The position numbers and the translations under genes are program-made. The notes under the pieces are model-generated. The model saw nothing but the letters and a program-made list of their open reading frames with translations. It did not search any database and was not told the DNA's origin. DNA of 64,000 nt from a candidate division WWE3 bacterium (GTDB lineage Bacteria > Patescibacteriota > WWE3 > JAPLWK01): contig JAPLWK010000008.1 of assembly GCA_026396615.1 (NCBI GenBank), positions 75,817-139,816 on the forward strand. Direction: 5' to 3'. This document shows, piece after piece, positions 4,070 through 56,292 of this stretch (positions are counted from its first letter, which is position 1; each line of letters begins with the position of its first letter).

Positions 4070-4328
4070 AAGTTATTAAACGCAGCCTCTCACTTTTCCC
4101 CTATTTATGTTTTAAATAGTACTATCGTTTATACGCGTCAACTTTATTCAAACCGCCTTCAATGTAAATTAAGCGCCAAGGACCAAAAGGCCAAGTCGCT
4201 TTGGCAGAGCCCGTGTTATGCTCCTTGACTTGACTTTCAATGTCTAGAGTGACACCAACATATGTTCGCTGATGCGTCAAACTTTGAATAATATACACTA
4301 AATATAACCTAAATGCTCAAAATTATAG

Positions 4329-13969: not shown

Positions 13970-14920
13970 ATGAAATTTTTAAAAGTCTTTTTTTTGTGTT
14001 CGATTATCTCTGCAGCTCTAGTATTTTCAAGTCGACCTGTTTTGGCAGCTGCCGGAGACTGCGGAGCGGGCTCCTGTCCGGCTAATTATACCTGCCAAGC
14101 GACATCCAATCCGATATTTTGTTGCCCAGTTGCTACTCCGACTCTTACCGCTTGTGGCACCAGCTGCTGCGAAGTCGCTAATTGCTATCATCCGGCAATA
14201 GGTTTACCAACCTGCGTTAATACCAACACCAGTAACTTAAGCACCTGTGGAAGTAATCTCTGTGTCACACAAATTTGTTGTGATACAGGCACATTAGATA
14301 ACTGTGTGCCATTACCAGCTGCCGGTTGTAGTCAGCGTCAACGGGTAAACGATGGCTGCGATAGCGACGGCGTTACCTGTCACCTAAAGCCTACCGACGC
14401 TTCGGTCCCCGCGCGGTTCATCACCGCGGCCGGTTCTGAGTGTGGTAATCACTTATGTGACCCCGGTGAGGCGTGTGAGTTTTCGATTGTCGCCGGAGGC
14501 GTACCTTTTACCTGCGATGGCAATGGCGGCACATCACCACTACCTGCTGGACAAACTTGCAACGCCACCTGTACACAAATTATTTCCAACGGCCAAGGTG
14601 GAGCGATTAGCGGCAATCCCTCAACGTATCATCTTGACACCACTGCCATCGGGGTCACCCCTAAATTCACAACGCTTGGTGGCATTACTTCTTTTGTCGT
14701 TAAGACAATGGTCGGGTTGGCTGGCGTGGCTTTTATGATCATGTTTTTGATCGGCGCCTTTAAGTTTGTGACTTCCCAAGGCGATAAAGCGGCTGTAGAG
14801 AGTGCCAAAGGCACGATTACCAGTGCTTTTATTGGCGTGGCCTTAACGGCGGCCTTATTTGCTATAATGACGCTGCTACAGAACGTTTTTGGCGTTTCGT
14901 TACTAAACATCACGACCTAA
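13970..14920 (+). CDS. fusion protein: signal peptide, a Cys-rich extracellular domain of about 200 aa (about 40 Cys), and a C-terminal TrbC/VirB2-like pilin domain (paralog 2)
   Basis: The C-terminal 75 aa (VGLAGVAFMIMFLIGAFKFVTSQGDKAAVESAKGTITSAFIGVALTAALFAIMTLLQNVFG) are homologous to the neighbouring pilin paralogs. Confidence 0.5.
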   Translation: MKFLKVFFLCSIISAALVFSSRPVLAAAGDCGAGSCPANYTCQATSNPIFCCPVATPTLTACGTSCCEVANCYHPAIGLPTCVNTNTSNLSTCGSNLCVTQICCDTGTLDNCVPLPAAGCSQRQRVNDGCDSDGVTCHLKPTDASVPARFITAAGSECGNHLCDPGEACEFSIVAGGVPFTCDGNGGTSPLPAGQTCNATCTQIISNGQGGAISGNPSTYHLDTTAIGVTPKFTTLGGITSFVVKTMVGLAGVAFMIMFLIGAFKFVTSQGDKAAVESAKGTITSAFIGVALTAALFAIMTLLQNVFGVSLLNITT

Positions 14921-14923
14921 GTT

Positions 14924-15238
14924 ATGAACTTAATTACTAAAGCCTACGCTGTTGTGATTGATCCTGGAATGATTGGGGTTAAAAATATTACCCCGGAATC
15001 GGGAATTATGATGGTCGTTAAAGCTCTAATTGGCGCTTGCGGCTTTGGCGCTTTTATTTTTTTAATAATCGGTGGCGTCAAATTTGTGGTCTCAGCGGGA
15101 GACAAAGGGGCCGTGGAAAGTGCTAAAAAGACAATTACCTTCGCCGTCATCGGCCTGGTCCTGGCCGCGGCCGCTTTTGCAATTGCCTCCTTGTTACAAA
15201 ACGTATTAGGGATTAATATTCTAAATGTAACTATCTAA
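14924..15238 (+). CDS. TrbC/VirB2-like pilin-family protein (paralog 3)
   Basis: ALIGACGFGAFIFLIIGGVKFVVSAGDKGAVESAKKTITFAVIGLVLAAAAFAIASLLQNVLGI. Confidence 0.5.
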   Translation: MNLITKAYAVVIDPGMIGVKNITPESGIMMVVKALIGACGFGAFIFLIIGGVKFVVSAGDKGAVESAKKTITFAVIGLVLAAAAFAIASLLQNVLGINILNVTI

Positions 15239-15262
15239 AAACAGGAGGTGACTTAATTTATT

Positions 15263-15620
15263 ATGTTTTTAATCAAAGATCTATTAGTAAAAGCTGCGTA
15301 TGCGGCACCAATTGATATTTTTAAAACTGCAGACGCTACCAGCGTTGACTTAAAAATTCAGAATGTTCAGACAGTAGTTTCTACCGGTATTAAAGCCCTA
15401 ATCGGAGCCGCCGGTTTACTGTTCTTTGTGATGTTAGTCTGGGGTGGTATTCAATTCGTCACTTCTGGCGGCGATAAAGCTCAAGCTACCGCCGCTAAAG
15501 ACCGAATTACTCACGCTTTATTGGCATCGTAATTGTGGCAGCCGCTTTCGCTATTGCCACGTTGCTCCAAAACGTCTTAGGAATTGGAATTACCGATTAC
15601 AACATTAGTAATGCTTACTA
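15263..15620 (+). pseudogene. TrbC/VirB2-like pilin paralog 4, disrupted by a 1-nt deletion frameshift near 15518. It is a near-identical tandem duplicate of paralog 5
   Basis: nt 15401-15588 are identical to 15775-15963 except that a single C is missing. The ORF stops at 15532, but the out-of-frame downstream sequence encodes the conserved C-terminal helix (IVIVAAAFAIATLLQNVLGIG). A good RBS (AGGAGGTGA) is present. Confidence 0.5.
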
Positions 15621-15642
15621 AGGGAGGTGAATTGTTATAATT

Positions 15643-15996
15643 ATGAATTTTTTAAATATAATCTCTGGTAAAGCTTTCGCTGAAAGTGTATTTGTAACCG
15701 GAAATAAAGCCACCGCTGTAGGCTTAAATATCTCCGACACCGGACTTCTGGTGTCCACAGCTATCAAAGCCTTAATCGGAGCCGCCGGTTTACTGTTCTT
15801 TGTGATGTTAGTCTGGGGTGGTATTCAATTCGTCACTTCTGGCGGCGATAAAGCTCAAGCTACCGCCGCTAAAGACCGAATTACTCACGCTCTTATTGGC
15901 ATCGTAATTGTGGCAGCCGCTTTCGCTATTGCCACGTTGCTCCAAAACGTCTTAGGAATTGGAGTTACCAACTTCACGATCCAACAGGCTTACTAA
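15643..15996 (+). CDS. TrbC/VirB2-like pilin-family protein (paralog 5)
   Basis: ALIGAAGLLFFVMLVWGGIQFVTSGGDKAQATAAKDRITHALIGIVIVAAAFAIATLLQNVLGIG. RBS GGGAGGTGA. Confidence 0.55.
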   Translation: MNFLNIISGKAFAESVFVTGNKATAVGLNISDTGLLVSTAIKALIGAAGLLFFVMLVWGGIQFVTSGGDKAQATAAKDRITHALIGIVIVAAAFAIATLLQNVLGIGVTNFTIQQAY

Positions 15997-16059
15997 TCAA
16001 ACGTTTCGCCCGGTAGCTAGGCAATCTAGCTACCGAAGCATCGTTAGATTTTTTAGTAT

Positions 16060-16368
16060 ATGGCTATATGCACAATTGGTGATCCACCCACTATAGATCA
16101 ACTGGGCCCCTGCTTTGTAAGCATTATTAAGCTAGTGGTAGGTTTTGCTGGGGTGGCTACCGTAATTGTGTTTTTAATTGGCACCGTTCAGTACATCACT
16201 TCCCGCGGTGACAAAGAAGGCGTTACCGCGGCTAAGGGTACCCTCACCTACGCCATTATTGGCCTGGTGGTGGTCGCCGTCGCCTTTGGGCTAGTCAGTC
16301 TTATTGACCGAACTATTCTTGGTGGAACCAACACTCTTCTCAACTTCGACGTTCCCAGTATTCACTAA
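16060..16368 (+). CDS. TrbC/VirB2-like pilin-family protein (paralog 6, most divergent)
   Basis: LVVGFAGVATVIVFLIGTVQYITSRGDKEGVTAAKGTLTYAIIGLVVVAVAFGLVSLI has the same architecture as the other paralogs. Confidence 0.45.
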   Translation: MAICTIGDPPTIDQLGPCFVSIIKLVVGFAGVATVIVFLIGTVQYITSRGDKEGVTAAKGTLTYAIIGLVVVAVAFGLVSLIDRTILGGTNTLLNFDVPSIH

Positions 16369-16377
16369 ACTCCATTT

Positions 16378-16409
16378 GTCATTCCGGGCTTGACCCGGAA
16401 TCCAGTAAC
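16378..16409 (+). repeat. hairpin repeat type A (GTCATTCCGGGCTTGACCCGGAATCCAGTAAC), solo copy
   Basis: Exact consensus copy 10 nt after the stop codon of pilin paralog 6. Confidence 0.8.
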
Positions 16410-26044: not shown

Positions 26045-26090
26045 ATGTGAGTAGTTTAGTGTAAATAGAGCAAATTGTCACCGATCATCC

Positions 26091-26122
26091 GTCATTCTGA
26101 ACTTGATTCAGAATCCAGTAAC
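26091..26122 (+). repeat. hairpin repeat, compensatory variant (GTCATTCTGAACTTGATTCAGAATCCAGTAAC)
   Basis: Both stem arms changed (CCGGG to CTGAA, CCCGG to TTCAG) while keeping perfect 8-bp pairing and the CTTGA loop. Confidence 0.75.
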
Positions 26123-26233
26123 AGTAAATGAATTTGAAATTCTAAATTTGAAATTTGAAATTGTAAATTATCTACAGAGGAACTTTGAGGCTTTGTAAAT
26201 CTTTATCTAAGGCGTTTAGATCGGCGTCTGGCG

Positions 26234-27698: not shown

Positions 27699-27722
27699 GG
27701 CTTTTGAGGGTATAACCACTTT

Positions 27723-27754
27723 GTCATTCCGGGCTTGACCCGGAATCCAGTAAC
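27723..27754 (+). repeat. hairpin repeat type A, solo copy
   Basis: Exact consensus 25 nt after the stop of the 27213 gene. Confidence 0.8.
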
Positions 27755-27825
27755 CGGTTAAAATTTTCAATCGATTTTTAAATATTGATTAAAAATTAAG
27801 AATTAAAAATTAAAAATTCCGATCT

Positions 27826-27901
27826 GCGCTCGTAGCTTAATGGATAGAGCATTAGCTTGCGGAGCTAACGGTTGCGCGTTCGAATCGCGCCGAGCGCACC
27901 A
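27826..27901 (+). tRNA. tRNA-Arg(GCG), CCA encoded
   Basis: Cloverleaf with acceptor GCGCTCG/CGAGCGC, D-stem GCTT/GAGC, anticodon stem TTAGC/GCTAA, loop TTGCGGA (anticodon GCG, G37), and T-loop TTCGAAT. Confidence 0.75.
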
Positions 27902-27960: not shown

Positions 27961-28330
27961 GGGGACGACGGGTCTAGACTAGATTCTGTCGATTACCTGT
28001 TGCAAGCCCAGCCAAGTTAACTGGTAAAACTGACTTAAAACATAATTGCTGACAAAACAGCTACTGTTCCCGCTTACGCCTACGCTAACGTGTATGCTTA
28101 AGTTTTCGAACCGTTCTTAAGAGTGATTTTTCCTAGGTGATCGCTTAAGGGCGTAATAAAATCTGGGATCGGGGGTTCTACCGGTGAGTAGAACTTTTTA
28201 GGCATTATTCACCACTGGCTTACTTTGTTTGTTGATTTAAAGGAGTAAGTTTTATCTAAAAATCATCTATGCTTGTAGATACGGGAGTCAAAGCTTTAGG
28301 ACGAGGGTTCAACTCCCTCCGTCTCCACCA
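27961..28330 (+). ncRNA. ssrA: tmRNA (SsrA), 370 nt
   Basis: The 5' GGGGACG pairs with the 3' CGUCUCC-A-CCA, including the G3:U70 alanine identity pair. The 3' GGACGAGGGTTCAACTCCCTCCGTCTCCACCA is a tRNA-like T-arm and acceptor. The internal tag ORF is gct gac aaa aca gct act gtt ccc gct tac gcc tac gct aac gtg tat gct taa (ADKTATVPAYAYANVYA*). Confidence 0.85.
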
Positions 28331-30359: not shown

Positions 30360-30743
30360 ATGAAAAAGACTACTATTTTACTTGTTATTGCTTTAGGTTT
30401 AGTTATCGCTGGCTGGTTTTTATTGAGATCAAAAGGGAGTAGCACTCCGTCAAAGAATAGTGAAGCTTCCTCGTCTGCGATGATCCTTTTCTACGGTGAC
30501 GGCTGCCCCCATTGCAAGAACGTTGATGATTTTGTAGCTACCGTTCCCAACCTTCAAAATAAATTAGGTTACAGTCACAAAGAAGTTTTTCTGAATAAAG
30601 ACAACGCCGCCACAATGCTGGACAAAGCCAAGACTTGCAAGCTGGACACGACTCAAGGCATGGGCGTGCCATTCCTGTGGACGGGATCGGCCTGTGTTGA
30701 AGGAGACACTGATATAATTAATTTCTTTAAGAGCAAATTGTAA
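30360..30743 (+). CDS. secreted/membrane-anchored thioredoxin-fold protein (CPHC active site)
   Basis: N-terminal signal/anchor, then ILFYGDGCPHCKN, a CxxC motif in thioredoxin-like context. Confidence 0.5.
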   Translation: MKKTTILLVIALGLVIAGWFLLRSKGSSTPSKNSEASSSAMILFYGDGCPHCKNVDDFVATVPNLQNKLGYSHKEVFLNKDNAATMLDKAKTCKLDTTQGMGVPFLWTGSACVEGDTDIINFFKSKL

Positions 30744-30750
30744 AAAACAT

Positions 30751-30961
30751 GTCATTCCGGCCCCGGAGCCGGAATCCAGTAACTTCCGATTTTAGTTATC
30801 AGTTCTCGGTTGTCGGTTGTCAGAATTTAGTTGCCCAGTTTTCAGTTTGTCGGTCAAATTGACTGATTAACAGACAACTGACAAACCAACATCTGAAAAT
30901 AGAAAACTGAGAACAGATAACTTGATCGATTTACTGGATTCCGGGTCAAGCCCGGAATGAC
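30751..30961. mobile_element. MITE-like composite of 211 bp. It consists of hairpin repeat type B (30751-30783, + orientation), a 147-bp palindromic cargo (family-2 element), and hairpin repeat type A (30931-30961, inverted)
   Basis: The terminal inverted repeats are the dispersed hairpin repeat. The cargo is about 80% identical to 43581-43716. Confidence 0.45.
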
Positions 30962-30970
30962 AATATTATT

Positions 30971-31471
30971 GTGTCATTTCTAATATCACTACTTTCAACA
31001 ATCTCGACCCCAGCCTACGCCATCTGCCCCGTCTGCGTCGTGGCTGTGGGCGCCGGCATTGGACTCTCTCGCTATCTAGGTGTTGACGATACTATCACCG
31101 GACTCTGGGTCGGAGCTCTAATCGTTTCAATGATTGTAACCACGCTAGACTTTCTAAAGAAACGTCACTGGGTCTTTAAAGGCGTCGGAATCGTCATCAC
31201 TCTTGGATATTACCTTCTCGTCATCATCCCACTCTACCTAAAAGATATCATTGGCCACCCTTTTAATAGGATTTTAGGAATCGACAAATTAGTTTTCGGA
31301 ATTATCTTTGGGACTATGGCACTGATTGTTGGACCCAAAATCCACGCTTGGCTTAAAAGTCGACATGGCGATAAATCATATTTCCCCTTTCAGAAGGTCG
31401 CTGTCCCCGTCTCGCTCTTAATAATCTTAAGTGGTATATTTTATATATTCACTAAATTCTATGGAAGATAA
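30971..31471 (+). CDS. hypothetical membrane protein (4-5 TM)
   Basis: Hydrophobic profile only. Confidence 0.35.
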   Translation: MSFLISLLSTISTPAYAICPVCVVAVGAGIGLSRYLGVDDTITGLWVGALIVSMIVTTLDFLKKRHWVFKGVGIVITLGYYLLVIIPLYLKDIIGHPFNRILGIDKLVFGIIFGTMALIVGPKIHAWLKSRHGDKSYFPFQKVAVPVSLLIILSGIFYIFTKFYGR

Positions 31472-31988: not shown

Positions 31989-32004
31989 ACACCTCCGTAA
32001 TTAT

Positions 32005-32036
32005 GTCATTCCGGGCTTGACCCGGAATCCAGTAAC
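32005..32036 (+). repeat. hairpin repeat type A, solo copy
   Basis: Exact consensus 17 nt after the stop at 31988. It is followed by the GCATGC-apex palindrome at 32049-32076. Confidence 0.8.
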
Positions 32037-32111
32037 CGAAAATTACATGTAGAGACGCAGCATGCTGTGTCTCTACAATTATTTTTGGCTGCGCCACGTT
32101 AGATCTTTACG

Positions 32112-35089: not shown

Positions 35090-35097
35090 TAAACCTT

Positions 35098-35129
35098 GTC
35101 ATTCCGGGCTTGACCCGGAATCCAGTAAC
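35098..35129 (+). repeat. hairpin repeat type A, solo copy
   Basis: Exact consensus 9 nt after the rpoD stop. Confidence 0.8.
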
Positions 35130-35144
35130 AACAAAACAACTGTA

Positions 35145-35164
35145 GGGGCGCCTTTTTGGCGCCC
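35145..35164. terminator. GC hairpin GGGCGCC-TTTTT-GGCGCCC preceded by the GTAGGGGCG motif, between convergent rpoD and kinase genes
   Basis: Perfect 7-bp GC stem. No extended U-tract. Confidence 0.4.
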
Positions 35165-35173
35165 GCATTGAAT

Positions 35174-35776: not shown

Positions 35777-35830
35777 AAATCTTAAATAATTGCGGGCGGG
35801 AAAACCCCGCCCCTACGATCGGAATCGTTT

Positions 35831-36826
35831 TTAGTTATTGTAACTGGATTCCGGCTCAGGGGCCGGAATGACATGCCTAACAGCTTCCCAATATTCAGGG
35901 TGTCCTTGTGATTTGGCCCACAGCCACCACTCCACTCCCCACAAATAAACCCGCGAATAATTGCTGGCCGAAATATAATGCAAACTTTTAGTAAACTGCT
36001 CAATACTTAAAATCTTTGTTTGATCGGCGATTGACAGGCCAGTAAGTCCATTTTGACCCCAGGGCTCCATTTGCAGTTCCGTCGCCCAAACTTTTTCTGG
36101 AACCCAACCTGTTAAATACCCTTTTAGATAGTAGTAAACTAGCGGAAATTTTAAATTAACGTAACCCAAAGTCTGGTTATAAGCCTGGCGATAAATACTA
36201 ATTCCTAAAATGTCCGCTGACCCTTTTAGAGGCCTCCACGGACCCCATTCTCCGGAATCCGTGATAACAACTAGACGTGTAGGGTCGAGTGACCGCACGT
36301 AATCAGCCTCGACCTTAAGATCGGCCGCGGTTGATGTCCCACAACTGCCAAAATTAAATAAAGGCTCATTTTCCACCTGCCAAGCAATGACTAGCGGATT
36401 ATTTTTGTAACGATTAACGACCGCTTGGTACATTTTAAATAAAGATGTCCGGTCACCCCACGCTGGTTGGTAACATTCCGGCCAGCGCGGCGCTTTCTTG
36501 CCCATGGCGAGTAGTATCGTGGCATTGCGAGAACTTGCTTCTTTGACCTCGTAATCCAGTTCTGAAAAGTCGTAATGACCTGGAGATAATTCGATCTGAT
36601 CCCAATACGCCACTAGCCTTAGATTTCGAACCTTGAGATCGTCAAGGACATCCTTGTAGGCCTTTTTCCAGTCTAAGCCCAAATAAGTGGCATACTGCGG
36701 CGTAAAAGTGACTCCAAAAATTGGAGGGTTTGCCGGAGCGGAGAAATAATTTAAATAAAGAAGATAAATTCCAAAGATACTAAAGATTGCGATGATTCCA
36801 ATGATTAACTTCCGACGGATAGTCAC
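35831..36826 (-). CDS. membrane-anchored glycoside hydrolase, GH5/GH113-like TIM barrel
   Basis: An N-terminal TM anchor is present. WQVENEPLF contains the NEP acid/base motif of clan GH-A. The C-terminal 13 aa (VIPAPEPESSYNN) are encoded by hairpin repeat copy 35840-35872. Confidence 0.45.
   Translation of the reverse strand: MTIRRKLIIGIIAIFSIFGIYLLYLNYFSAPANPPIFGVTFTPQYATYLGLDWKKAYKDVLDDLKVRNLRLVAYWDQIELSPGHYDFSELDYEVKEASSRNATILLAMGKKAPRWPECYQPAWGDRTSLFKMYQAVVNRYKNNPLVIAWQVENEPLFNFGSCGTSTAADLKVEADYVRSLDPTRLVVITDSGEWGPWRPLKGSADILGISIYRQAYNQTLGYVNLKFPLVYYYLKGYLTGWVPEKVWATELQMEPWGQNGLTGLSIADQTKILSIEQFTKSLHYISASNYSRVYLWGVEWWLWAKSQGHPEYWEAVRHVIPAPEPESSYNN
35840..35872 (-). repeat. hairpin repeat type B (centre CCCCTGAGC), solo copy, translated as the C-terminal tail of the GH5-like protein
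   Basis: Reverse complement of GTAACTGGATTCCGGCTCAGGGGCCGGAATGAC. Confidence 0.75.
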
Positions 36827-40500: not shown

Positions 40501-40561
40501 AGAGCAGGGTTGTAATGTATATTATAGGACATTCAGAGGAGGTTGTCAACGTCTTAACTTT

Positions 40562-40593
40562 GTCATTCCGGGCTTGACCCGGAATCCAGTAAA
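40562..40593 (+). repeat. hairpin repeat type A, solo copy, followed by a CCAAT-rich imperfect palindrome (40594-40725)
   Basis: gtcattccgggcttgacccggaatccagtaaat. Downstream arms AATTACCAAT..CCAATCAATT / AATTGATTGG..ATTGGTAATT. Confidence 0.75.
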
Positions 40594-40738
40594 TCAAATT
40601 ACCAATTTACAATTACCAATAACCAATCAATTTCCGAATTTTTTAATGACCAAATAATTAATCGTTAACTCATTGGTAATTGATTGAAAATTGGTCATTG
40701 GTAATTGGTAATTCTGTGACGCAAGTTATGGTAACAGA

Positions 40739-43536: not shown

Positions 43537-43580
43537 AAGGGCTTCAGAATAGCGCAGAATCGGGATTATGGCAAGTGTTC

Positions 43581-43716
43581 GATTAGTTAGTTATCAGTTC
43601 TCGGTTGTCTGTTGTCAGCATTTAGTTAATCGGTTTTCAGTTTGTCGGTCTAAATAACCGGTAAACAGAAAACTGGCAAACTAATATCTGAAAACCGAAA
43701 ACTGAGAACCGAAAAC
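43581..43716. repeat. family-2 palindromic element (about 135 bp), second copy. It is internally inverted-repeat with short direct repeats (CGGTTGTC, AAAACCGAAAACTGAGAACCGAAAAC)
   Basis: About 80% identical to 30787-30920. It sits upstream of the nusA start. Confidence 0.6.
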
Positions 43717-43745
43717 TAAAAATTAAGGGCCCTCAGGCCCTTAAA

Positions 43746-45128
43746 TCATTTCTTACCCGCCGGCTTCGCAGGCTTCCCCGGGCTCCACCCACCACCCACC
43801 TGCAAAGCGGCTTCTATCTTCTGAGGAATAGATCTGGCAGTCCACACAAACCATAGTCCAATCACCCAATTAAAAATTAATCCTAAAAAAGCAAAAGGTG
43901 TTGAATTTAAGTCGCCTACAATCTGATTTATCATAATTGTAGGCCCTTTTATTAAAATGTTGGTTCCCAGGGATACAAAAAGCCACATAGCAGGTATGGC
44001 AAGAACATTACCAATTAGGGACTTAAACCAACTGGTGATCATTTCGTCTTTTCCCGGAAGAGCGCCTACCAAAAACTGCAGCGGAGCAAAGATTGTCATC
44101 AGCATTATCCTACCAAACCTTGTAAAATAGCTTATTCCAACAGCAATTAAAGCTAAGATATAAGTTACGACTAAAACTAAAAGGAGGCATAATACAAAAA
44201 GCGCAACACCAGTTCCAACACCAGAAGCTCCAGCAGCGGATAAAGCAACCACGCCCAGGGCGGAAACGACAAGTTGAACGAGAACATCTACCATATCTGG
44301 TTGAGAAAAAACGCCACCGACAACTAATTTACCAACAAAATCTCCTAAGACTGGAATTAATTTTATAGCGAAACCAGCGATTGGGTAACTAAAAGTTATT
44401 AGTAGTAAACAAACAACAACTTTTGGTAAAGCGTCCTGAACCGTAATTACCGTTTGCGGTTTAATCTCGTGTCGAAACATCACCATGAAACCGAAGGCCA
44501 CTAGAATAATCACAAATAGTAGGTAGGCTAAATTTCTGAATGCCTTCCATAAATCAAGCACCGTGGTGCCAAAAATACCATCTGCAAGAGTACCCGCAGC
44601 ATAGGCACTTTGGGGAACTAATGGCGAATCTCTCTTAATGTCATTAATATATAAAGCTAAGTTTACCGGCAGTAAATCGACTCGTTTCGGTGCTTCGGAG
44701 GTTACAGCATAAGTCACGCCTAAAAGACTAGGAGGCATAACTTGTGAAGACTGAGGTTTCATATTTGTAAGCGGAGAATTCGTAAGGCATTTTCTTACCT
44801 CAACCGTGGCAGACGCGCGATCTTTAGAAGCAGCCGTTACCTCACTCATATCACAATTACCAAAAATTAGCGTCTGAGAAGCCGCGTTTACCCCAGCCAC
44901 GGCTAAATTACTGGTCCATTTGTCCATATCTGTTGCCAAATGCCTTAAATCATTAAGAGATTTTAAACCTACAGTAGTTAGAGCAAAGTCTAGTACATCT
45001 GCTTTAACAGGTTTAGCTAAAATAAAAGAGCCAATGCTGAAAGTGCTAATGAGGATTAAAAGGATTAAAGATAGAGACAAACGAGATTTCATAATGTTTA
45101 TGCTACAGAGTACGTTGACCGTAGTCAA
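43746..45128 (-). CDS. polytopic membrane protein with signal peptide and a 200-aa N-terminal ectodomain (VirB6/TrbL-like topology, speculative)
   Basis: Signal peptide, then at least 6 TM helices. C-terminal Lys/Pro tail. Confidence 0.3.
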   Translation of the reverse strand: MTTVNVLCSINIMKSRLSLSLILLILISTFSIGSFILAKPVKADVLDFALTTVGLKSLNDLRHLATDMDKWTSNLAVAGVNAASQTLIFGNCDMSEVTAASKDRASATVEVRKCLTNSPLTNMKPQSSQVMPPSLLGVTYAVTSEAPKRVDLLPVNLALYINDIKRDSPLVPQSAYAAGTLADGIFGTTVLDLWKAFRNLAYLLFVIILVAFGFMVMFRHEIKPQTVITVQDALPKVVVCLLLITFSYPIAGFAIKLIPVLGDFVGKLVVGGVFSQPDMVDVLVQLVVSALGVVALSAAGASGVGTGVALFVLCLLLVLVVTYILALIAVGISYFTRFGRIMLMTIFAPLQFLVGALPGKDEMITSWFKSLIGNVLAIPAMWLFVSLGTNILIKGPTIMINQIVGDLNSTPFAFLGLIFNWVIGLWFVWTARSIPQKIEAALQVGGGWSPGKPAKPAGKK

Positions 45129-45144
45129 GAATTACCAGATCTAT

Positions 45145-46284
45145 TTATGACGCCACTTTAACCGGCATTATTAGGTGTAGATAGTCAACTCGATCATCGA
45201 GGCGCCAGAGGCCTGGAGCGAGGGCCCCGGTGGTTTCTAAAATGATATTGTCACCACTAGTGTTGTTCATTAAATCTAGAAGATATTTGCCATTAAAAGA
45301 GATGATCAGATCGTCGCCGCTAATGGTTGCTGGAATAGCCACGGTGCTTTCCCCAACTTCGGCGGTAATCGCCGACAAAGTAATTTGGCTTTTACTCCCG
45401 TCTAATTGGACTTTAATAATATTGCTGGCATCGCGAGCAAAAATGCTACTTAAGCGAGCCGCTTTTAAGAATTCCTCTTTACTAAAAGTGCTCTTGGTTT
45501 TAAAGTCTTTGGGAATAATTCGCAAATAATCCGGAAACTCGCCTTCGAGAAGCCTCGTAATAATTAAGAAGTTTTCTCCCGAAAAAGCGGCTAAATTTCC
45601 CTCACGCTCAATCGAAATTGATAAAGGTGAAGTGCCGGAACCAACCAAACGAGCGACTTCCAAAAGAGCTTTAGCCGAAATAACCACCGGTTCTAAAGTT
45701 ATTGGCTCAGGAAGCGAAAGACGACGCTCCGCGAGTCGAAAGCCATCAACGCCGACCAGAACCAAATCGTTACCCTCAGCTTTAAGAAGAATACCGCCCA
45801 GAATGGGCCGAGCGTCGTCAGAGGAAGCCGCAAAAACGACTTCGGAAACCGCTTTGGCAAAGGCTTTAGGATCAATGGTTAAGGAAAGGTCAGCCGGAAC
45901 GGCCGGCAGACTGGGAAACTCTTCAGCGGAGAGGCCGTTAAATTTGGACTTACCGGCGGCCGTTTTTAAATAGAAAATTTCTTTTTCCAAAAAGGCTTCT
46001 ATTTCTGTCGCTGGTAAATTACTAACCACCTCAGAGATAAGACGAGCCGGCACCGAAATAGCCCCCGCTTCGGTAATAGTAGCTGGGATCCAAGTGATAA
46101 TGCTGGTTTCAAGATTGGTGGCGGAGAGTTTAAGGCGGCCATTGTCCTCGGTCGTGATTAAGACGTGACTAAGGACTGGCAGACTGCCTTTAGTAGCCAC
46201 CGCTTTGCTAACAGTCGATAATCCTTCCCGTAAATTTTCTTGGAGGCAGGTAAATTTCACTCTATTTGACCACAGAAACGACAA
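45145..46284 (-). CDS. dnaN: DNA polymerase III beta subunit (sliding clamp)
   Basis: MKFTCLQENLREGLSTVSKAVATKGSLPVLSHVLI is the DnaN N-terminus. About 370 aa, three-domain length. Confidence 0.85.
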   Translation of the reverse strand: MSFLWSNRVKFTCLQENLREGLSTVSKAVATKGSLPVLSHVLITTEDNGRLKLSATNLETSIITWIPATITEAGAISVPARLISEVVSNLPATEIEAFLEKEIFYLKTAAGKSKFNGLSAEEFPSLPAVPADLSLTIDPKAFAKAVSEVVFAASSDDARPILGGILLKAEGNDLVLVGVDGFRLAERRLSLPEPITLEPVVISAKALLEVARLVGSGTSPLSISIEREGNLAAFSGENFLIITRLLEGEFPDYLRIIPKDFKTKSTFSKEEFLKAARLSSIFARDASNIIKVQLDGSKSQITLSAITAEVGESTVAIPATISGDDLIISFNGKYLLDLMNNTSGDNIILETTGALAPGLWRLDDRVDYLHLIMPVKVAS

Positions 46285-46714
46285 TGTGTCTCTCGTAACC
46301 TTCGCCGGCAGATTCGGATTTCATCCCAGGCATTGTGCCAATGACAGTATGAATTAAACGTCTTTCGAAAGGCGGCATCGGCGGTAAATCAATGGCTTTA
46401 TCTAAAAAGCGGGCTCGGTCGCAGGCATTGGTCGCAATCTCTCGCAGTCTGGCTTCGCGCTCTGAAGCATAGCCCGAAATATCTAACCTTAAATCAACCC
46501 ATTCGCCATACTTATTGTATAAAGCCAAAGCCAACCAGGTTTGCAAAGAAGCTAAAGTTTCGCCGTGATAACCAATCAGTATCCCGAGATTCTCTCCGTC
46601 GAGTGACACCCCAAGTGTTCCTTCAACCTCAGTGACAGAGACTTTGGCTGGCATCGCCAGTTTCTCAATTAGTTCGGTAGTTAAGTTTTGTAAAGTTTCA
46701 ATTTTTTCCGGCAT
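46262..46714 (-). CDS. jag: Jag/KhpB (KH + R3H domain RNA-binding protein)
   Basis: Positioned next to yidC. LIGYHGETLASLQ (KH) and ERRLIHTVI (R3H). Confidence 0.65.
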   Translation of the reverse strand: MPEKIETLQNLTTELIEKLAMPAKVSVTEVEGTLGVSLDGENLGILIGYHGETLASLQTWLALALYNKYGEWVDLRLDISGYASEREARLREIATNACDRARFLDKAIDLPPMPPFERRLIHTVIGTMPGMKSESAGEGYERHIVVSVVK

Positions 46715-47480
46715 ATTTTTTTATTTTCACCAACCAGCGCTTGGCGTGCCCATCAACCACTACTTGTTGAATCAATTGCAGTAACGACGACAAAAACCAG
46801 TACATCGTTAAACCCGAAGCCAGCTTCCAACCAATCAAAACCGTCATCACCGGCATAATGTATAACGATTGTTCTTGGATATTATACATGATATCGTCGC
46901 TTTTTCCAGCGGTTTTCTTGGCTAATTTTTCTTCTTTGGTAACTTGCGGCATCATCATTTTGGAAAGTAAAAATTGAGTAGCGGCGGCGATAATCGGAAG
47001 AATAAAAAATTGATCGGGCTTAATTAAATCAAGATACAAGAAACGGGTGTTTAAAACGTGGCCACCGGCAAATTGCAGGAACGGGTACAGTACTGAATTT
47101 AAGGTTTGGCCGGCATTGTTACCTAGAACCTTTAGAAAAACTTGATACAAAGCAAAAACAATCACTAAAGTAACAATTTGCATAATGCAGCCGGACGAAG
47201 GATTAAGACCATGCTCTTTTAGAAACTTGGCCTGAGCCTCCATTTGGGCTTTTTTATCGTCCTTAAATTTCTCTTTAATGGCGGCGAGTTCCGGAGCTAA
47301 TTCTCGCTGTTTTTTAGCGGATTTTAGCATCGGCAGCGACAAAGGCAAAGTAACGACTTTAATAATTATAGTGATGGCGATTATAGCCAAGCCTAAATTA
47401 CTGCCTAAAGAGTTGTATAAAAAAACCAGAGCGTTGGTTAAGGGAAAAACTAAACCTTGATTCCAAATGTTAGCAAGCAT
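46698..47480 (-). CDS. yidC: membrane protein insertase YidC (short, Gram-positive/CPR type)
   Basis: Five TM helices with the conserved PLS..LP...Q and a C-terminal basic tail. Position after yidD. Confidence 0.8.
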   Translation of the reverse strand: MLANIWNQGLVFPLTNALVFLYNSLGSNLGLAIIAITIIIKVVTLPLSLPMLKSAKKQRELAPELAAIKEKFKDDKKAQMEAQAKFLKEHGLNPSSGCIMQIVTLVIVFALYQVFLKVLGNNAGQTLNSVLYPFLQFAGGHVLNTRFLYLDLIKPDQFFILPIIAAATQFLLSKMMMPQVTKEEKLAKKTAGKSDDIMYNIQEQSLYIMPVMTVLIGWKLASGLTMYWFLSSLLQLIQQVVVDGHAKRWLVKIKKYAGKN

Positions 47481-47486
47481 AATAAA

Positions 47487-47723
47487 TTATTTAACCGGAT
47501 CGAAGCCACCGCGACTAAACGGGTTGCAACGGAGAATCCGGTACATGCCCATTAAAGACCCTCGCAGAATACCATATTTACCGATGGCTTCATAGCTGTA
47601 CTGCGAGCAACTGGGAGTAAAGCGGCAGAAATGAATCCCCGGAAACAGTTTGTGAGGAATTCCGTGATCAAAGGAGAGGAGTTTTTGATAAAGCCGAATT
47701 AAGGCTTGTGCGAATTTCGTCAT
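47487..47723 (-). CDS. yidD: membrane protein insertion efficiency factor YidD
   Basis: [45 protein letters not shown] is the YidD signature. Confidence 0.85.
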
Positions 47724-48009
47724 AATTGCTAGTTAACGACCGTTTAAAAGCGACGATTACCACGTCATAACCCATTTTAAAAGATTCTAAATTTTCGTGC
47801 CAGGCATCCCTAAACATCCGCCGGACGCGATTACGATAGACCGCCCGCTTGTCAAGAGAATTAGTGACAATAATCCCAAGACGCGTTACTCCTTGCGTCT
47901 TAGCGGCCACGTACGACAAGCCAAACAGAGGTGTTGCAACCCCTTTTCCTAAGCGTTTAACGCGACGAAAATCGTAATCTGAAGTGAGTCTATATTTAGC
48001 AGGCAGCAC
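47668..48009 (-). CDS. rnpA: ribonuclease P protein component RnpA
   Basis: [21 protein letters not shown]...[22 protein letters not shown]. Confidence 0.85.
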
Positions 48010-48015
48010 TATTAT

Positions 48016-48174
48016 TTACGCTTTCTGAGTTAACTGCGGCGTTAAAACTTTGCGCCCCTTGGCCCGGCGAGATTTTAAAACCCTACGTCCTGTTGGGGTT
48101 GACATTCTCTTCATGAAACCGTGCACTTTAACGCGGTGTTTTTTCTTCGGTTGAAAAGTTCTCTTTGTAGCCAT
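48016..48174 (-). CDS. rpmH: 50S ribosomal protein L34
   Basis: The reverse strand encodes [47 protein letters not shown] (52 aa). It was not in the ORF track because it is shorter than 60 aa. Coordinates are within ±1 nt. Confidence 0.8.
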
Positions 48175-48285
48175 AACGAATGCATCTTACTTAAAAATAA
48201 ACCAAATAGCAACAACTAAAGAGCCTCTTGACGGCTTGTTGATAACTAACTACGATTTATAAACAACTGCCCCAAACTTACCCAC

Positions 48286-49641
48286 ATGCCAACAGACATT
48301 CTTTGGAAAAACATTTTAAGTGAGATAGAAAAGGAAATCACCAGTAGCTTCTTTAAAGCTTTCTTAACTAAAACAAAGTTAATTAACTATGAAAATGGCG
48401 TGCTTAACGTTACCTGTGCCAGCGAGCAGGCTCGCTTTCAAATTGAAAATAAATACTTGGGAATTATTAAAAGTGTGGCGGATAAGTTAACCCAAAGCAA
48501 CACTAAAATTGTAATGACTGTGGAAGAAGCTGCTAAAAAAGCGGTCACAGAAGCACCACTACTTGATCAAATTGCCAAAGAAAAAGCCCACGACCCGGTA
48601 TTCACTTTAAATAGTAATCTCTCCACAAGCTACACCTTTGATAGCTTTGTAGTGGGTCCTAACAACCGCTTGGCTTCGGCCGTTGCTCATGCTATTGCCG
48701 ACAACCCCGGTACCGTCTACAATCCCTTCTTCATTTATTCCGGCGTTGGCTTGGGAAAAACGCATTTGATGCAAGCAATTGGCAACGAGATTTTAAAAAA
48801 CAAAAAGGGTGGCCGAGTGGTTTACACCACCGGAGAATCATTTACCAATGAGATGGTAGAAGCGATTCAAAATTCAAAAAGACAATATAGTAGCGTTTCT
48901 AAATTTAGAGATAAATATCGCAATGTTGATGCTTTACTCATAGATGACGTCCAGTTCATTGCTGGTAGGGAGACGACCCAGGAAGAGTTCTTCCACACTT
49001 TTAACGCTCTTTATTTAAATCATAAGCAGATTATTTTAACGTCCGATCGGCCTCCCAAAGACATTGCTCGCCTCGAAGAACGCCTCTCGTCCCGTTTCTT
49101 AAGTGGCATGACGGCCGATATGCAAGCCCCCGATTTAGACATGCGCTCGGCTATTCTGCGTCAAAAACGTGACCAATTAAAATTACCAATTACCAATGAG
49201 GTGACTGATTTTATCGCCGAACGAGTTCTTAGTAATGTGCGGGAACTGGAAGGGGCTTTGCTTAAGGTCAGTGCAGTCGGTCAAGCTTCAGGATCAGCGG
49301 TGACGATTGACCAAGCGGCTGAAATCTTGGGGCAAGTAGCCCGCGAGCAACGCAAAAATTATACTTCTACCGACATCATCAAAGCCGTCGCCAGTTATTA
49401 CAACGTTAAATTAGTGGATCTTAAAGGGCCCAGACGCCAAGCCGAAGTCGTCGTGCCTCGGCAAATTGCCATGTACCTGGTTCGCTCTTTAACTCAAATG
49501 CCGGTCATTACCCTCGGCGAAATCTTTGGCGGTCGTGATCACAGCACAGTCATTCACGCCACGGATAAAATAGCGTTAGCGGTTAAAACCGATACCAAAA
49601 TGAATCAAGATATTATTAATATTAAGCAAGGTTTATTGTAG
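48286..49641 (+). CDS. dnaA: chromosomal replication initiator DnaA
   Basis: Walker A GVGLGKTHLMQAIG, box VII, and the C-terminal DNA-binding domain ...IAMYLVR...GGRDHSTVIHA. Confidence 0.9.
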   Translation: MPTDILWKNILSEIEKEITSSFFKAFLTKTKLINYENGVLNVTCASEQARFQIENKYLGIIKSVADKLTQSNTKIVMTVEEAAKKAVTEAPLLDQIAKEKAHDPVFTLNSNLSTSYTFDSFVVGPNNRLASAVAHAIADNPGTVYNPFFIYSGVGLGKTHLMQAIGNEILKNKKGGRVVYTTGESFTNEMVEAIQNSKRQYSSVSKFRDKYRNVDALLIDDVQFIAGRETTQEEFFHTFNALYLNHKQIILTSDRPPKDIARLEERLSSRFLSGMTADMQAPDLDMRSAILRQKRDQLKLPITNEVTDFIAERVLSNVRELEGALLKVSAVGQASGSAVTIDQAAEILGQVAREQRKNYTSTDIIKAVASYYNVKLVDLKGPRRQAEVVVPRQIAMYLVRSLTQMPVITLGEIFGGRDHSTVIHATDKIALAVKTDTKMNQDIINIKQGLL

Positions 49642-49867
49642 GCTGCAGATCCGAATTAATCCGAAAGGGTATTTGAATTTATTCGAATATCGAATCGGGT
49701 TGAGGACGAGGCATGCCTCGTCCTCGGATAAAACAAACATACGTTAATGTGGATAATCAACAATTACACTCCAGGCCTTGTGGATAAAAGTCTAACTTGT
49801 CCACAAAGTTATCTACATAAGTTTATAGTTATCAACAATTGATTCGAGTGTTCCTACAAGCTTAAGT
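49642..49867. promoter_or_regulatory. candidate oriC. It contains a cluster of five DnaA-box-like 9-mers and AT-rich sequence
   Basis: TGTGGATAA at 49748 and 49780 (perfect reverse complements of TTATCCACA). TTGTCCACA at 49798, TTATCTACA at 49808, TTATCAACA at 49832. A GCATGC-apex hairpin at 49703-49725. Another TGTTGATAA box at about 48237 between rpmH and dnaA. Confidence 0.5.
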
Positions 49868-51292
49868 GTGGTCAAAAGTAGTAGGTATCAAAAGTATAGA
49901 CATATGAACAAACAAAAAACATTAAATAACAAGTTACAAAAGGCCGCTTTTATGTTGATCAACATGTTAACACCACCTAATACTAAGACGACTAAATATA
50001 AACAGTTAAAACCATTACAGTGGGTTGTTCATAACCTCAAGTCGATATCTTTTGTTCTGTTATTATTTGGGATAATAGTTAACTGGGGAAAACATTATAT
50101 AAATAGTGGCTCCTACGTTTCTGGAACTTTAGTTGATTACTTAATTCCTACTTTCTATTTTAGTTACTTAACAACTCTGTTTTTTATTAGCGTTAATCTT
50201 AAAGAAGCGGTTACCAATATATTTCAGACATCTTCTAAGATTTACACCGCTCTAAGGATTCGACGATTACTTTTTATACTGGCTATAATTTTTATAGTAC
50301 TAGTCATATTTTCCTATTTACTTAACCCTACTGTTGCTAGTTTAACGAAGACCTTACAGCTATTTTTAATGCTTAATCTCTTTGTTGTGGTCACTAACAT
50401 TCAAATCACGCCGCGGGACCTTAAGGCTATCATGACGACCTTAGTGGCACTGCTAGTTGTGACGGCACTTTTGGGTTTGTACCAATTTATTTTCCAGCGC
50501 AGTTTGTGTGGTTACTTTTGTTTTGGGGAGACAAATTTACTTAAAAATACTTATGGTATTACTACCGACTTTTTTGGAAGTGTCTCCCGAATACTTCCCT
50601 ACGGCCCTTTTCCACACCCTAATATTTTCGGCGGTTTCTTGGCACTAGGAGTAACTTTTGTAAGTTGGCTTTTCTTAAAAACTCATAAGTGGGGCTATAT
50701 AGTTTTTATAATATTTATAGCTTCTATAATTTTTATAACTCACTCAGAAATGGCTATTTTGACAGCCCTACTCGGAGTATTATTTTTGCTATTTTTAAAA
50801 GCGTCATCCAAAGTGTTTAAATTAGTCTGGCTAGGCAGTTTAGTCACTTTAGTGATTGGACTCGAGATTTATTTAGTAACTCATCCGTTAGTTTTAAACA
50901 CCCTTTCTTGGCTACGTCGTTTGCACTTAGCTCAGTCTGCTGTGACGGCCATTAAGAACTTTCCAATCCTGGGGCTGGGTCCTAATAATTTTATAAAGTA
51001 CTTGCCTAGTCTCCCTTATAACCCCGGCTTTCCGCCGTTTTGGCAGCCGGTACATAATATTTATCTGCTAATTGCGTCAGAGCTGGGGGTGCCAACTTTA
51101 ATAGTTATAATATTTATAATTCTTATAATATTTATAACTGTTATACAGTCGCGGCGATATCTTTTTGCGGCATTAATAGCTCAACTTTTAATCTTAGGTT
51201 TTTGGGATCACTATCTGTGGACGACGCCCCAAGGTCTTTTATTGTTTTGGTTGACTTTAGGGGTCGCTGTTTCTAATATAAAGAGGCGATGA
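49868..51292 (+). CDS. O-antigen ligase/polymerase-like (Wzy_C) polytopic membrane protein
   Basis: About 12 TM helices. LGLGPNNFIKYLP...HNIYLLIASELGVPTLI matches the Wzy_C HN-YL..E.G motif. Confidence 0.55.
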   Translation: MVKSSRYQKYRHMNKQKTLNNKLQKAAFMLINMLTPPNTKTTKYKQLKPLQWVVHNLKSISFVLLLFGIIVNWGKHYINSGSYVSGTLVDYLIPTFYFSYLTTLFFISVNLKEAVTNIFQTSSKIYTALRIRRLLFILAIIFIVLVIFSYLLNPTVASLTKTLQLFLMLNLFVVVTNIQITPRDLKAIMTTLVALLVVTALLGLYQFIFQRSLCGYFCFGETNLLKNTYGITTDFFGSVSRILPYGPFPHPNIFGGFLALGVTFVSWLFLKTHKWGYIVFIIFIASIIFITHSEMAILTALLGVLFLLFLKASSKVFKLVWLGSLVTLVIGLEIYLVTHPLVLNTLSWLRRLHLAQSAVTAIKNFPILGLGPNNFIKYLPSLPYNPGFPPFWQPVHNIYLLIASELGVPTLIVIIFIILIIFITVIQSRRYLFAALIAQLLILGFWDHYLWTTPQGLLLFWLTLGVAVSNIKRR

Positions 51293-52584
51293 AATTCTCC
51301 GCGACTCGACTTCTATCCACTGCGCTGCTGGTGACGCTGCCTTTTGGTTTGGGTGGCTGTAACTCTAAGTTACCCGGAGCTGCCGCCAAAGTCACTTTGA
51401 CTTATTGGGGCTTGTTTGAGCACCCGGAAACAGTCGCTCCCTTGATTGCCGGTTACCAAAAACTGCACCCTAACGTCACTATTAATTATTCACCGCAAAC
51501 CTATACCACTTTAGCCAGTTACAAGGAGACGGTTTTGACTCGTCTTAAAGGCGGCACTAGCGGCACCGTTCCTGATATTCTACGAATTCACGCCTCTTGG
51601 GTGCCCGGTATGTACCAAAATTTATCACCGTTACCCACGACGGTTTATAGCCCCACCGATTTTTCGCAGACGTTTTACCCGGCGGCCGCTAAGTCCTTAA
51701 CCATTGGCACCAATATTTACGGCATTCCGTTAATGTATGACGGCTTGGCGTTAGTTTATAACACCGATCTGTTTGCCGAGGCCGGGATTACTTCCCCACC
51801 GACCACTTGGGAAGATTTTCGAGCGGTGGCTGTGAAACTTACTAAACTTGATGCCAGGGGTCGAATCGATCAGTCGGGGGCGGCCATCGGTCTTTCCAGC
51901 AATGTCGCTTTTGGCAGTGATCTGCTAAATTTAATGTGGGCCCAAAGTAGCCTTAAAATTCCCGATGATTTGGGAACGCAAGCGGCTTCCGATGCTCTCA
52001 CTTTTTACACTAATTTTGCCAAGCAGGATAAAGTTTGGGATAGTGACCTTCCCTATTCGGTGACCTCGTTTGCTAACGGCAAGGTGGGCATGATTTTTGT
52101 GCCTTCTTGGACTTTACTGGATATTACCGGCATTAATCCTTCTATTAAATACGCCGTGGCGCCGGTTCCCCAAGTGCCCAGTTTAACGGGATCGCAAAGC
52201 TCCGTAAATTGGGCCAGTTTTTGGGTAGAGAGTGTCGCTAAGTCTTCACCAAATAGTGCGGCAGCTTGGGATTTCCTAAAATATTTAAGCGAAAAAAGTA
52301 CTCAGCAACAGTTCTACAGTGAAACCGCCAAAATCCGGCCTTACGGTGAACTTTACAGTCGCCGTGATTTACGTGACAGTTTATTGTCTGACAAGAATTT
52401 AAGCCCCTATATTTCCGGGGCGGAATCCGCGGTTACCGGCGCTGTCTCCGACCGGGCCGGTAATGACTTTGCGGTGGCCGCCGTTAACGACGCCATTTCC
52501 GCGGCCGCAGCTGGCACCGATGCCAAAACAGCTTTAGGCATTTGCCAAAAAACCTTGCAGCAACTTGGGGTTAGAAGTTTGTAG
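51289..52584 (+). CDS. extracellular solute-binding protein (family 1, sugar-type) lipoprotein
   Basis: Lipobox LGGC. VTLTYWGLFE...GIPLMYDGLALVYNTDLF matches the SBP_bac_1 pattern. Confidence 0.5.
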   Translation: MKFSATRLLSTALLVTLPFGLGGCNSKLPGAAAKVTLTYWGLFEHPETVAPLIAGYQKLHPNVTINYSPQTYTTLASYKETVLTRLKGGTSGTVPDILRIHASWVPGMYQNLSPLPTTVYSPTDFSQTFYPAAAKSLTIGTNIYGIPLMYDGLALVYNTDLFAEAGITSPPTTWEDFRAVAVKLTKLDARGRIDQSGAAIGLSSNVAFGSDLLNLMWAQSSLKIPDDLGTQAASDALTFYTNFAKQDKVWDSDLPYSVTSFANGKVGMIFVPSWTLLDITGINPSIKYAVAPVPQVPSLTGSQSSVNWASFWVESVAKSSPNSAAAWDFLKYLSEKSTQQQFYSETAKIRPYGELYSRRDLRDSLLSDKNLSPYISGAESAVTGAVSDRAGNDFAVAAVNDAISAAAAGTDAKTALGICQKTLQQLGVRSL

Positions 52585-53725: not shown

Positions 53726-53730
53726 AATTT

Positions 53731-54399: not shown

Positions 54400-54405
54400 A
54401 AAGTA

Positions 54406-56289: not shown

Positions 56290-56292
56290 AAA

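Follow-up and report, generated by a model that had tools for sequence, protein, structure and literature searches.

A 64,000-nt stretch of a candidate division WWE3 genome (contig JAPLWK010000008.1, positions 75,817 to 139,816; hereafter the window) carries two copies, here called A and B, of an imperfect palindrome whose arms are composed of 7-nt units (heptads). The patterns detected are best explained, with a probability that we put at about 68%, by a dispersed, non-autonomous and probably mobile palindromic repeat of ~125 nt, analogous to the Rickettsia palindromic elements (RPE) but heptad-built. Copies were found at unrelated sites in many genomes, both in intergenic DNA and in frame within genes, with hosts in WWE3 (the window, whose NusA is 100% identical to a protein of a WWE3 metagenome-assembled genome), Gottesmanbacteria (loci L037 and L047) and Collierbacteria (protein P0122). 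Judged from sequence, the family is a heptad palindromic element common in bacteria of the candidate phyla radiation (CPR), or Patescibacteria.

The original prediction for this DNA had described two copies about 80% identical, each a long imperfect inverted repeat assembled from short direct repeats. Both were recovered within a few bases of where they had been placed, the strings quoted as shared were confirmed, and the internal structure was borne out by self-complementarity and by arms made of 7-nt units. Identity between the copies was 85% over 131 nt without gaps (30792-30922 against 43587-43717, repeat finder), 84% by blastn at a word size of 7 (within-window E = 3e-34) and 87% as mean column identity after MAFFT alignment; blastn found no third copy in the 64-kb window. 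Each copy is an imperfect palindrome of ~130 nt, copy A being 73% identical over 129 nt to its reverse complement, with a right arm that reads AGTTATC TGTTCTC AGTTTTC TATTTTC when reverse-complemented. Against the family profile described below, which includes both window copies, nhmmer scored copy A at 100.7 (E = 7e-29) and copy B at 103.9 (E = 7e-30). Among 67 aligned copies the two are mutually nearest (83%), as expected if multiplication occurs within a lineage. Both are intergenic and non-coding, with stop codons in all six frames.

That the pair belongs to a genuine repeat family had also been proposed, with a search for more copies as the check, and about 80 distinct strong copies are indeed present in public data, with independent copies sharing the same length, ends and inner non-heptad segments. 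When one genome per species was scanned with a degenerate 20-mer, the matches listed did not include the window's own genome but contained three full-length relatives, two of them (L037, L047) from Candidatus Gottesmanbacteria GW2011_GWC1_43_10 and one (L099) from a metagenome-assembled genome labelled Gammaproteobacteria, where the copy is located between rpoA and rplQ. For this last copy, read-through of the element by the upstream open reading frame (ORF), preserving translational coupling, was considered and rejected, because rpoA stops before the element. A strict two-ended pattern (AGTTATCNGTTCTC, 85-112 nt, GARAACNGAWAAC) matched 101 metagenome loci, and after removal of duplicates and of ~18 matches with heptad arms around unrelated GC-richer cores there were 74 non-redundant core members, 112-131 nt long and of a single layout. 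The profile built from these core members gave 98 strong matches, representing 80 distinct sequences at a score of at least 80, and added copies within the same loci, e.g. three each in L160, L179 and L213. No family copies were found in viral contigs.

The layout consists of two inverted arrays of ~8 heptads around a loop of 3-15 nt, with RGTTNTC units in the left array and GANAACY units in the right one; these are the TAACTGA heptad in reverse and forward orientation, respectively. The ends are conserved (TCAGTTATC...GATAACNGA), with terminal inverted repeats TCAGTTATCnGTTCTC / GAAAACnGATAACnGA bounding an element of ~125 nt; the right arm runs as GAnAACn four times plus three, its outermost unit being GATAACTGA in many copies, and within the arms lie conserved blocks that are not heptads (GATnnnAGTT and AACTAAAnTC). 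In alignment A2 of 67 copies, 34 of the 137 columns are invariant and a further 29 nearly so, giving the consensus TCAGTTATCnGTTCTCGGTTTTCnGTTTTCnGATnnnAGTTnnTCnGTTnTCnGTTTnTCGGT-loop-AACnGATnAACnGAAAACTGATAAACTAAAATCTGAnAACnGACAACnGAAAACnGATAACnGA; G+C content of the element is 32-46%. The original prediction had allowed that the similarity might come down to low-complexity composition. Chance similarity of that kind is excluded, as the copies agree in the succession of heptad variants along the arms, in the non-heptad blocks and in having a fixed length, and copy B matched L210 at 82.5% over 137 nt with E = 7e-31 (megablast). In one copy (L156, 7463-7640) a 13-nt block (ATTTAGTTAGTC...) of the left arm is tripled in tandem, which shows that elements undergo local slippage.

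A large fraction of the copies lies inside genes. Twenty-five of the 80 distinct strong copies (31%) occur within long ORFs that read through them, the host genes encoding TrxB, LeuRS, RadA, RluD, Obg, Prs and the PolA exonuclease, and in 9 of 10 host ORFs tested a Pfam domain spans the insert (Pyr_redox_2 in TrxB and LeuRS domains, each with two inserts, PseudoU_synth_2, RadA-type AAA_25, GTP1_OBG, Prs domains, 5'-3' exonuclease and ComEC, the latter as the Competence domain). TrxB of L160 aligned with yeast thioredoxin reductase TrxR1 (3d8x) in three blocks broken only at its two inserts. An AlphaFold2 model of P0122, a Collierbacteria TrxB homolog, had a confident core, with 243 residues at a predicted local distance difference test score (pLDDT) of at least 90, and both inserts (residues 102-136 and 310-347) below 50, the insert peptide of ~40 residues being predicted as disordered. 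A profile of this peptide (A3) had no match among 5.8 billion proteins, the peptide being too short and low-complexity for a database of that size. In-frame copies are mainly read in one frame and orientation (QLSVLGSRLS..SQSV..TG.PKT.K..SENRK.KTDN), which is open in 68% of copies inside ORFs as opposed to 2% of intergenic copies; the latter have a mean of 4.1 stops in it, mostly TGA from AACTGA. A 116-nt sublineage is confined to ORFs, in different genes. RluD and RadA show independent insertions in the same surface regions, at neighbouring positions and in opposite orientations. One further TrxB (P0121) was examined as a possible allele lacking one insert and rejected, its apparent loss being only a truncation at the N-terminus.

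The element probably multiplies as selfish DNA, moved in trans by some enzyme. No consistent target-site duplication of 2-8 nt was detected, at most 5 of 71 copies sharing a 4-mer at any of 81 boundary offsets. Six of 70 copies were positioned exactly at the centre of another palindrome, with fewer than one expected (99th percentile of the control); these are copy A and the copies of L122, L128, L214, L126 and L150, in the last five of which the outer arms are heptads of other unit types. Because there is no target-site duplication, and because of the palindromic form and the tendency toward centres of other palindromes, the route may be hairpin or single-strand transposition of the kind used by repetitive extragenic palindromes (REP) and IS200-IS605, rather than the cut-and-paste transposition of miniature inverted-repeat transposable elements (MITE). 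Two observations around copy B were also counted for mobility. First is that a short-read assembly of the same organism (L222) ends inside copy B, since assemblers break at repeats. Secondly, no family copy stands upstream of nusA in relatives whose NusA is 70-73% identical; as these have dnaJ rather than a membrane-protein gene upstream of nusA, they are uninformative on the insertion site of copy B itself.

Several observations weigh against a mobile element. There was no transposase among the ~56 window ORFs scanned with Pfam, no longer element with the same ends and no isolated left or right end in the CPR loci (~0.65 Mb of CPR sequence), and no clean empty site was found. At the two TrxB loops where L160 has the element, the trxB genes of L228 (P0125) and L230 (P0124) instead have plain in-frame tandem heptads, TCATCAT four to five times encoding SSFIIHHSSSII and ATCAACT three times encoding HQLSTIN in P0125, and AATAACC/AACAACC in P0124; with other tandem heptads at the same loops, heptad turnover in place is inseparable from insertion there and, from these sequences, is evidently also at work in TrxB loops. 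Three orthologous PHP-domain genes have the element at one shared site, and there the insert is 85/78/79% identical in nucleotides compared with 72/57/58% at host synonymous sites, and conservation above saturated synonymous sites is not predicted for plain neutral junk. Finally, a start codon lies 3-22 nt from the end of 22 of 55 intergenic copies, which hints at a cis role or a target preference. This count is an upper bound, since TGA codons supplied by the element skew the positions at which ORFs can start; homology makes the nearby start certain for rplF (L216) and rplQ (L099).

The last two observations would also be accounted for if the heptad arrays were cis-acting sites recognised by a protein or the ribosome, on DNA or RNA, regulating the neighbouring gene and retained because they are useful. 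The omega ribbon-helix-helix repressor of plasmid pSM19035 has operators composed of heptads in tandem and inverted order. Copy B lies 13 nt upstream of the predicted nusA -35 hexamer, relatives have other palindromes just upstream of nusA, and the TAACTGA direct repeats of Beggiatoaceae are similarly placed (PMC4679880). Against this, the in-frame copies sit in coding sequences of unrelated housekeeping genes and in both orientations, the genes adjoining copies have no common function, the distances to start codons carry the downward bias just described, and no candidate binding protein was identified. The nearest start codons are 49-52 nt from the window copies, with other elements intervening. 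We regard regulation in cis as unlikely to explain the family.

In a second alternative, replication slippage in heptanucleotide microsatellites would have produced each copy where it now stands, the two arms becoming symmetrical afterwards, and similarity among loci would be low-complexity convergence rather than common descent or mobility. This genome is rich in heptads of various unit types (26131-26178, 27772-27820, 40595-40713), the plain tandem heptads of the P0125 and P0124 TrxB loops fit such an origin, and Acidobacteriota and other phyla have unrelated cores enclosed by inverted CAGTTNT arrays. Slippage would not account for an order of heptad variants (ATC, CTC, TTC, TTC...) common to copies of different loci and genomes, nor for the shared non-heptad blocks, the narrow range of lengths, the invariant columns, pairwise E-values down to 1e-30 and conserved asymmetries between the arms, e.g. 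GTTCTC opposite GAAAAC. An origin wholly in place is therefore quite improbable.

The original prediction had further suggested that the element is the cargo of a MITE, captured between hairpin terminal inverted repeats; on such a reading the nusA copy would be a cargo that has lost its ends. The contrast on which this was founded is real, with hairpins on both sides of copy A and none at copy B. Copy A is the centre of a hairpin doublet resembling a REPIN (a REP doublet forming hairpins), its flanks being the best flanking inverted repeat among 70 copies, and the symmetric b+/a- pair around it recurs at 1858-1965 and 58403-58504, with other short inserts inside it, and at 4009-4073 with none. 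Such hairpins were found within 90 nt of only one of 93 strong copies, copy A itself, and since the element spreads without them and is bounded by conserved ends of its own, a MITE with GTCATTCCGG...CCGGAATCCAGTAA termini is very improbable. Small GC-rich palindromes (e.g. CTCGCCTCGnTGAAGCTTCGGCGAAGC) were found inserted at heptad boundaries of the element in L189 (575-730), L213 (6320-6469) and both inserts of L229, the trxB of Collierbacteria JACRNH010000004.1 (P0122), so that the two kinds of repeat nest in either order; in L213 and L229 these palindromes are in frame inside coding copies and add ~13 residues (LPDFAWTKSRRAG and PPAGAWSASDWRAG in L229). The arrangement at copy A is better taken as one repeat family nested with another, independent one, which is local and not a property of the family. 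The hairpin unit itself, GTCATTCCGG(loop)CCGGAATCCAGTAA, is ~33 nt long and of REP size, has loops of the types GCTTGAC and CCCGGAG, and occurs in 15 copies in the window (1858-1965, 4009-4073, 16377-16409, 26090-26122, 27722-27754, 30750-30963, 32004-32036, 35097-35129, 35843-35873, 40561-40594 and 58403-58504), often paired in inverted orientation like REPINs with spacers of 0, 35, 41, 147 and ~715 nt. A Pfam scan of ORFs in the 64-kb window found no Y1 transposase and no gene resembling a REP-associated tyrosine transposase (RAYT).

The element is predicted to fold strongly. Single-strand folds of copies A and B reached -45 to -52 kcal/mol, with z = -6.5 to -8.2 on both strands relative to dinucleotide shuffles, and if transcribed the window copies would form an imperfect hairpin of ~60 bp. 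The covariation check that had been proposed alongside folding gave no support: RNAalifold keeps 17 near-invariant outer pairs, among which there were no compensatory base changes, and in the outer heptads, which have five variable mirrored columns, Watson-Crick pairs fell below the expectation from column compositions at every one (10 observed and 25.5 expected at columns 10/128, 2 and 16 at 17/121, 3 and 21 at 21/117, 4 and 18.5 at 24/114, 5 and 22 at 28/110). G.T and A.C combinations predominate at these columns, and with the conserved arm asymmetries this indicates a stem in which 5-6-bp segments are separated by regular mismatches and which is inherited in that form, with no sign of selection for an RNA helix. 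At gathering score, Rfam identified only tRNAs and tmRNA in the window and no family for the element, the sub-threshold matches being to generic long-hairpin families at 18-33 bits against cut-offs of 61-229 (best, MIR7996 at 33 bits against 119 and WsnRNA46 at 25.5 against 65). The gene for a structured non-coding RNA suggested by the original prediction, to which the strong hairpins and two conserved copies in intergenic DNA could have pointed, is the least probable explanation of all, given this lack of covariation, equally good folding of both strands, translation of 31% of copies within ORFs, no bracketing pair of promoter and terminator and no Rfam family at gathering score.

In behaviour, the closest known system is the RPE (RPE-1 to RPE-10), dispersed palindromic repeats that occur between genes and, unusually often, in frame in unrelated housekeeping genes, where the peptide is tolerated by the fold (PMC10969869). 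Both are multi-copy palindromes of ~100-150 bp, here ~80 copies of 112-131 nt that fold strongly, and both insert in frame leaving the host fold intact, here in 25 of 80 copies with core pLDDT above 90 and inserts below 50. The differences are that the host here is CPR/Patescibacteria and not Rickettsia, that the arms are regular 7-nt arrays, and that coding copies are stop-purged sublineages, typical intergenic copies having ~4 stops in the same frame. Sequence homology to RPE is not expected, and as the host is WWE3 or another CPR lineage, the heptad element is an analogue of RPE and not a member.

By sequence unit, the nearest known system is the TAACTGA heptad repeat. MacGregor (2015) reported TAACTGA direct repeats in Beggiatoaceae, Cyanobacteria and Bacteroidetes, with arrays of 2-6 units that in a few species reach 43, and just one indirect repeat in the genome of BOGUAY (PMC4679880). 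The heptad is the same, the right arm here being NAACNGA and often exactly TAACTGA at the outermost unit, as are the translations (LSVISYQ in reverse, LITDN-stop forward) and the frequent position a few nucleotides upstream of start codons. MacGregor's repeats, however, are short direct arrays of variable copy number, mostly upstream of starts and in forward orientation, whereas here paired arrays stand in fixed inverted order with conserved inner blocks and ends, as a discrete 125-nt unit copied whole and found also inside genes. In mostly Acidobacteriota contigs (L004, L012, L016, L017, L019, L021, L023-L025, L033, L034, L042, L043, L051 and others) there were small palindromes whose [CAGTTNT]n arms enclose GC-richer, unrelated cores (10-60 nt or longer), and among the matches listed in the 20-mer scan 42 of 125 had a mirrored arm within 45-250 nt; the same heptad as in the CPR element around different cores suggests a cross-phylum phenomenon.

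Other small repeats share some of these features. Enterobacterial repetitive intergenic consensus sequences (ERIC, also termed intergenic repeat units or IRU), Correia elements and MITEs are likewise multi-copy, non-autonomous imperfect palindromes of ~125 nt that often stand in intergenic DNA that is transcribed and occasionally within genes, and like classical MITEs the element has terminal inverted repeats, is under 300 bp and has no coding capacity for a transposase. Unlike Correia elements and classical MITEs it has no target-site duplication, and it differs from all of these in its heptads, a far higher in-frame fraction and no matching insertion sequence in the CPR loci (~0.65 Mb), the window or viral contigs. 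With REP and REPIN sequences mobilised by RAYT, a Y1 transposase of the HUH type, the element shares hairpin formation, the absence of target-site duplication and nesting or clustering with other palindromes (PMC3116915, PMC3333891), and the doublet around copy A resembles a REPIN; REPs differ in being GC-rich, 20-40 nt and extragenic, as opposed to 125 nt, 32-46% G+C and frequently intragenic. Full-text searches on palindromic, MITE and heptamer repeats in CPR lineages, with partial coverage of the literature, yielded no paper describing this family. Within that coverage, a palindromic repeat of CPR bacteria that is built of heptads and able to sit within coding sequence appears to be undescribed.

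Table 1. Coordinates in the 64,000-nt window of the two element copies and of features next to them.
Feature	Position	Strand	Basis or remark
Copy A of heptad palindromic element, TTAGTTATC...GATAACTTG	30792..30924	+	85% identity with copy B; first row of alignment A2
Copy A left arm: AGTTATC AGTTCTC GGTTGTC GGTTGTC, then AGAATTTAGTTGCC, further heptads	30792..30856	+	heptad parse; period-7 autocorrelation
Copy A central loop AAT	30857..30859	+	minimum-free-energy fold; heptad parse
Copy A right arm, inverted heptads ending GAAAACT GAGAACA GATAACT	30860..30924	+	fold; parse
Copy B of heptad palindromic element	43587..43719	+	repeat finder; blastn; row 2 of alignment A2
Copy B left arm	43587..43649	+	heptad parse
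Copy B central loop CTAAATA	43650..43656	+	fold; heptad parse
Copy B right arm	43657..43719	+	heptad parse
Hairpin unit type b, TGTCATTCCGGCCCCGGAGCCGGAATCCAGTAAC, left of copy A; separate repeat family, not part of the element	30750..30783	+	15 such units in window
Hairpin unit type a, reverse complement of GTCATTCCGGGCTTGACCCGGAATCCAGTAA, right of copy A	30931..30963	-	REPIN-like doublet with type b unit
Promoter-like site TTGCCA-17-TATTCT for nusA (ATG 43536)	43546..43574	-	consensus match only
Terminator-like hairpin of upstream membrane-protein gene (43746-45128, minus strand), abutting copy B	43723..43744	-	

In the window, the genes on either side of copy A are a thioredoxin-like ORF with a CPHC motif (30360-30743) and a membrane-protein ORF (30971-31471). 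Copy B is oriented opposite to its neighbouring genes, the order on the minus strand being the end of the membrane-protein gene (43746), the terminator-like hairpin, copy B, the promoter-like site and the nusA ATG (43536). Copy B might conceivably act on the promoter of nusA-infB, as the original prediction had raised. For the host, both copies are probably near-neutral intergenic insertions. In two WWE3-like relatives with NusA 72-73% identical (L223 2900-3000, L226 1985-2080) a different imperfect palindrome, of GGAAGAT-type units, stands directly upstream of the nusA start, and both palindromes end in the common TCGTCTAG(A/T)AATT(T)ATG. Copy B also lies at a break in synteny (window 43700-58500), where ~15 kb separates dnaJ (58504-59430) from nusA; in the relatives L223, L226 and L227, dnaK-dnaJ-nusA-infB are adjacent. 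The intervening segment is edged by copy B and the hairpin pair 58403-58504, and contains dnaN, jag/khpB, yidC, rnpA and dnaA (the origin region), a Wzy-like gene, genes for a solute-binding protein and a LytR-family protein, tpiA and type IV secretion system (T4SS) genes (TraG P-loop ATPase 54406-56289; PrgI-like 56985-58403).

There were other repeats in the window. Downstream of the infB stop (40739, minus strand) and directly 3' of a hairpin unit, positions 40595-40713 form a 119-nt imperfect palindrome of AATTACC-type heptads, a different heptad family of the same architecture that could be the terminator region of the nusA-infB operon. Period-7 arrays at 26131-26178 (AAATTTG) and 27772-27820 (AAAATTA), the latter just upstream of tRNA-Arg (27826-27901) and tmRNA (27961-28330), are likewise each immediately 3' of a hairpin unit, as part of a pattern in which four of five period-7 arrays in the window abut such a unit. 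A third repeat type, GC-rich palindromes of the form TGTAG(A/G)G(A/G)CGCAGCATGCTG(T/C)G(T/C)C(T/C)CTACA, was present beside hairpin units at 32048-32077, 35133-35165, 35790-35815 and 63801-63835. Five genes with a T4SS-pilin domain (PF18895) form an array at 13970-16368, in which 15377-15621 and 15751-15996 are a recent tandem duplication (88-96% identical), and 9-nt periodic AT-rich repeats (TTATAATAT-like) occupy 50268-51145 inside a Wzy_C (O-antigen ligase-like) ORF (49868-51292).

For the window itself the implications are modest, that is, two probably neutral intergenic insertions, one of them beside the nusA promoter at a synteny breakpoint. For the family they may be broader. The element has spread despite the tiny, streamlined genomes of CPR bacteria, reaching the coding sequence of genes such as trxB, leuS, radA, obg and prs, and would be a second, independent case of selfish palindromes of the Rickettsia type inside proteins, in another lineage of reduced genomes. 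Annotation and assembly of CPR genomes would be affected, with contigs breaking in the element and proteins gaining low-complexity inserts, and the unexplained TAACTGA heptads of several phyla would be linked to a discrete element copied as a unit. A more ambitious reading, which we offer tentatively and consider possible without thinking it likely, is of a CPR-wide class of mobile, translatable palindromes remodelling essential proteins and sharing a 7-nt unit with the arrays of Beggiatoaceae, Cyanobacteria, Bacteroidetes and Acidobacteriota. If this is true, there would be a widely distributed machinery recognising or generating the heptad, either a mobilising enzyme or a heptad-binding protein, and with it a new kind of bacterial repeat system.

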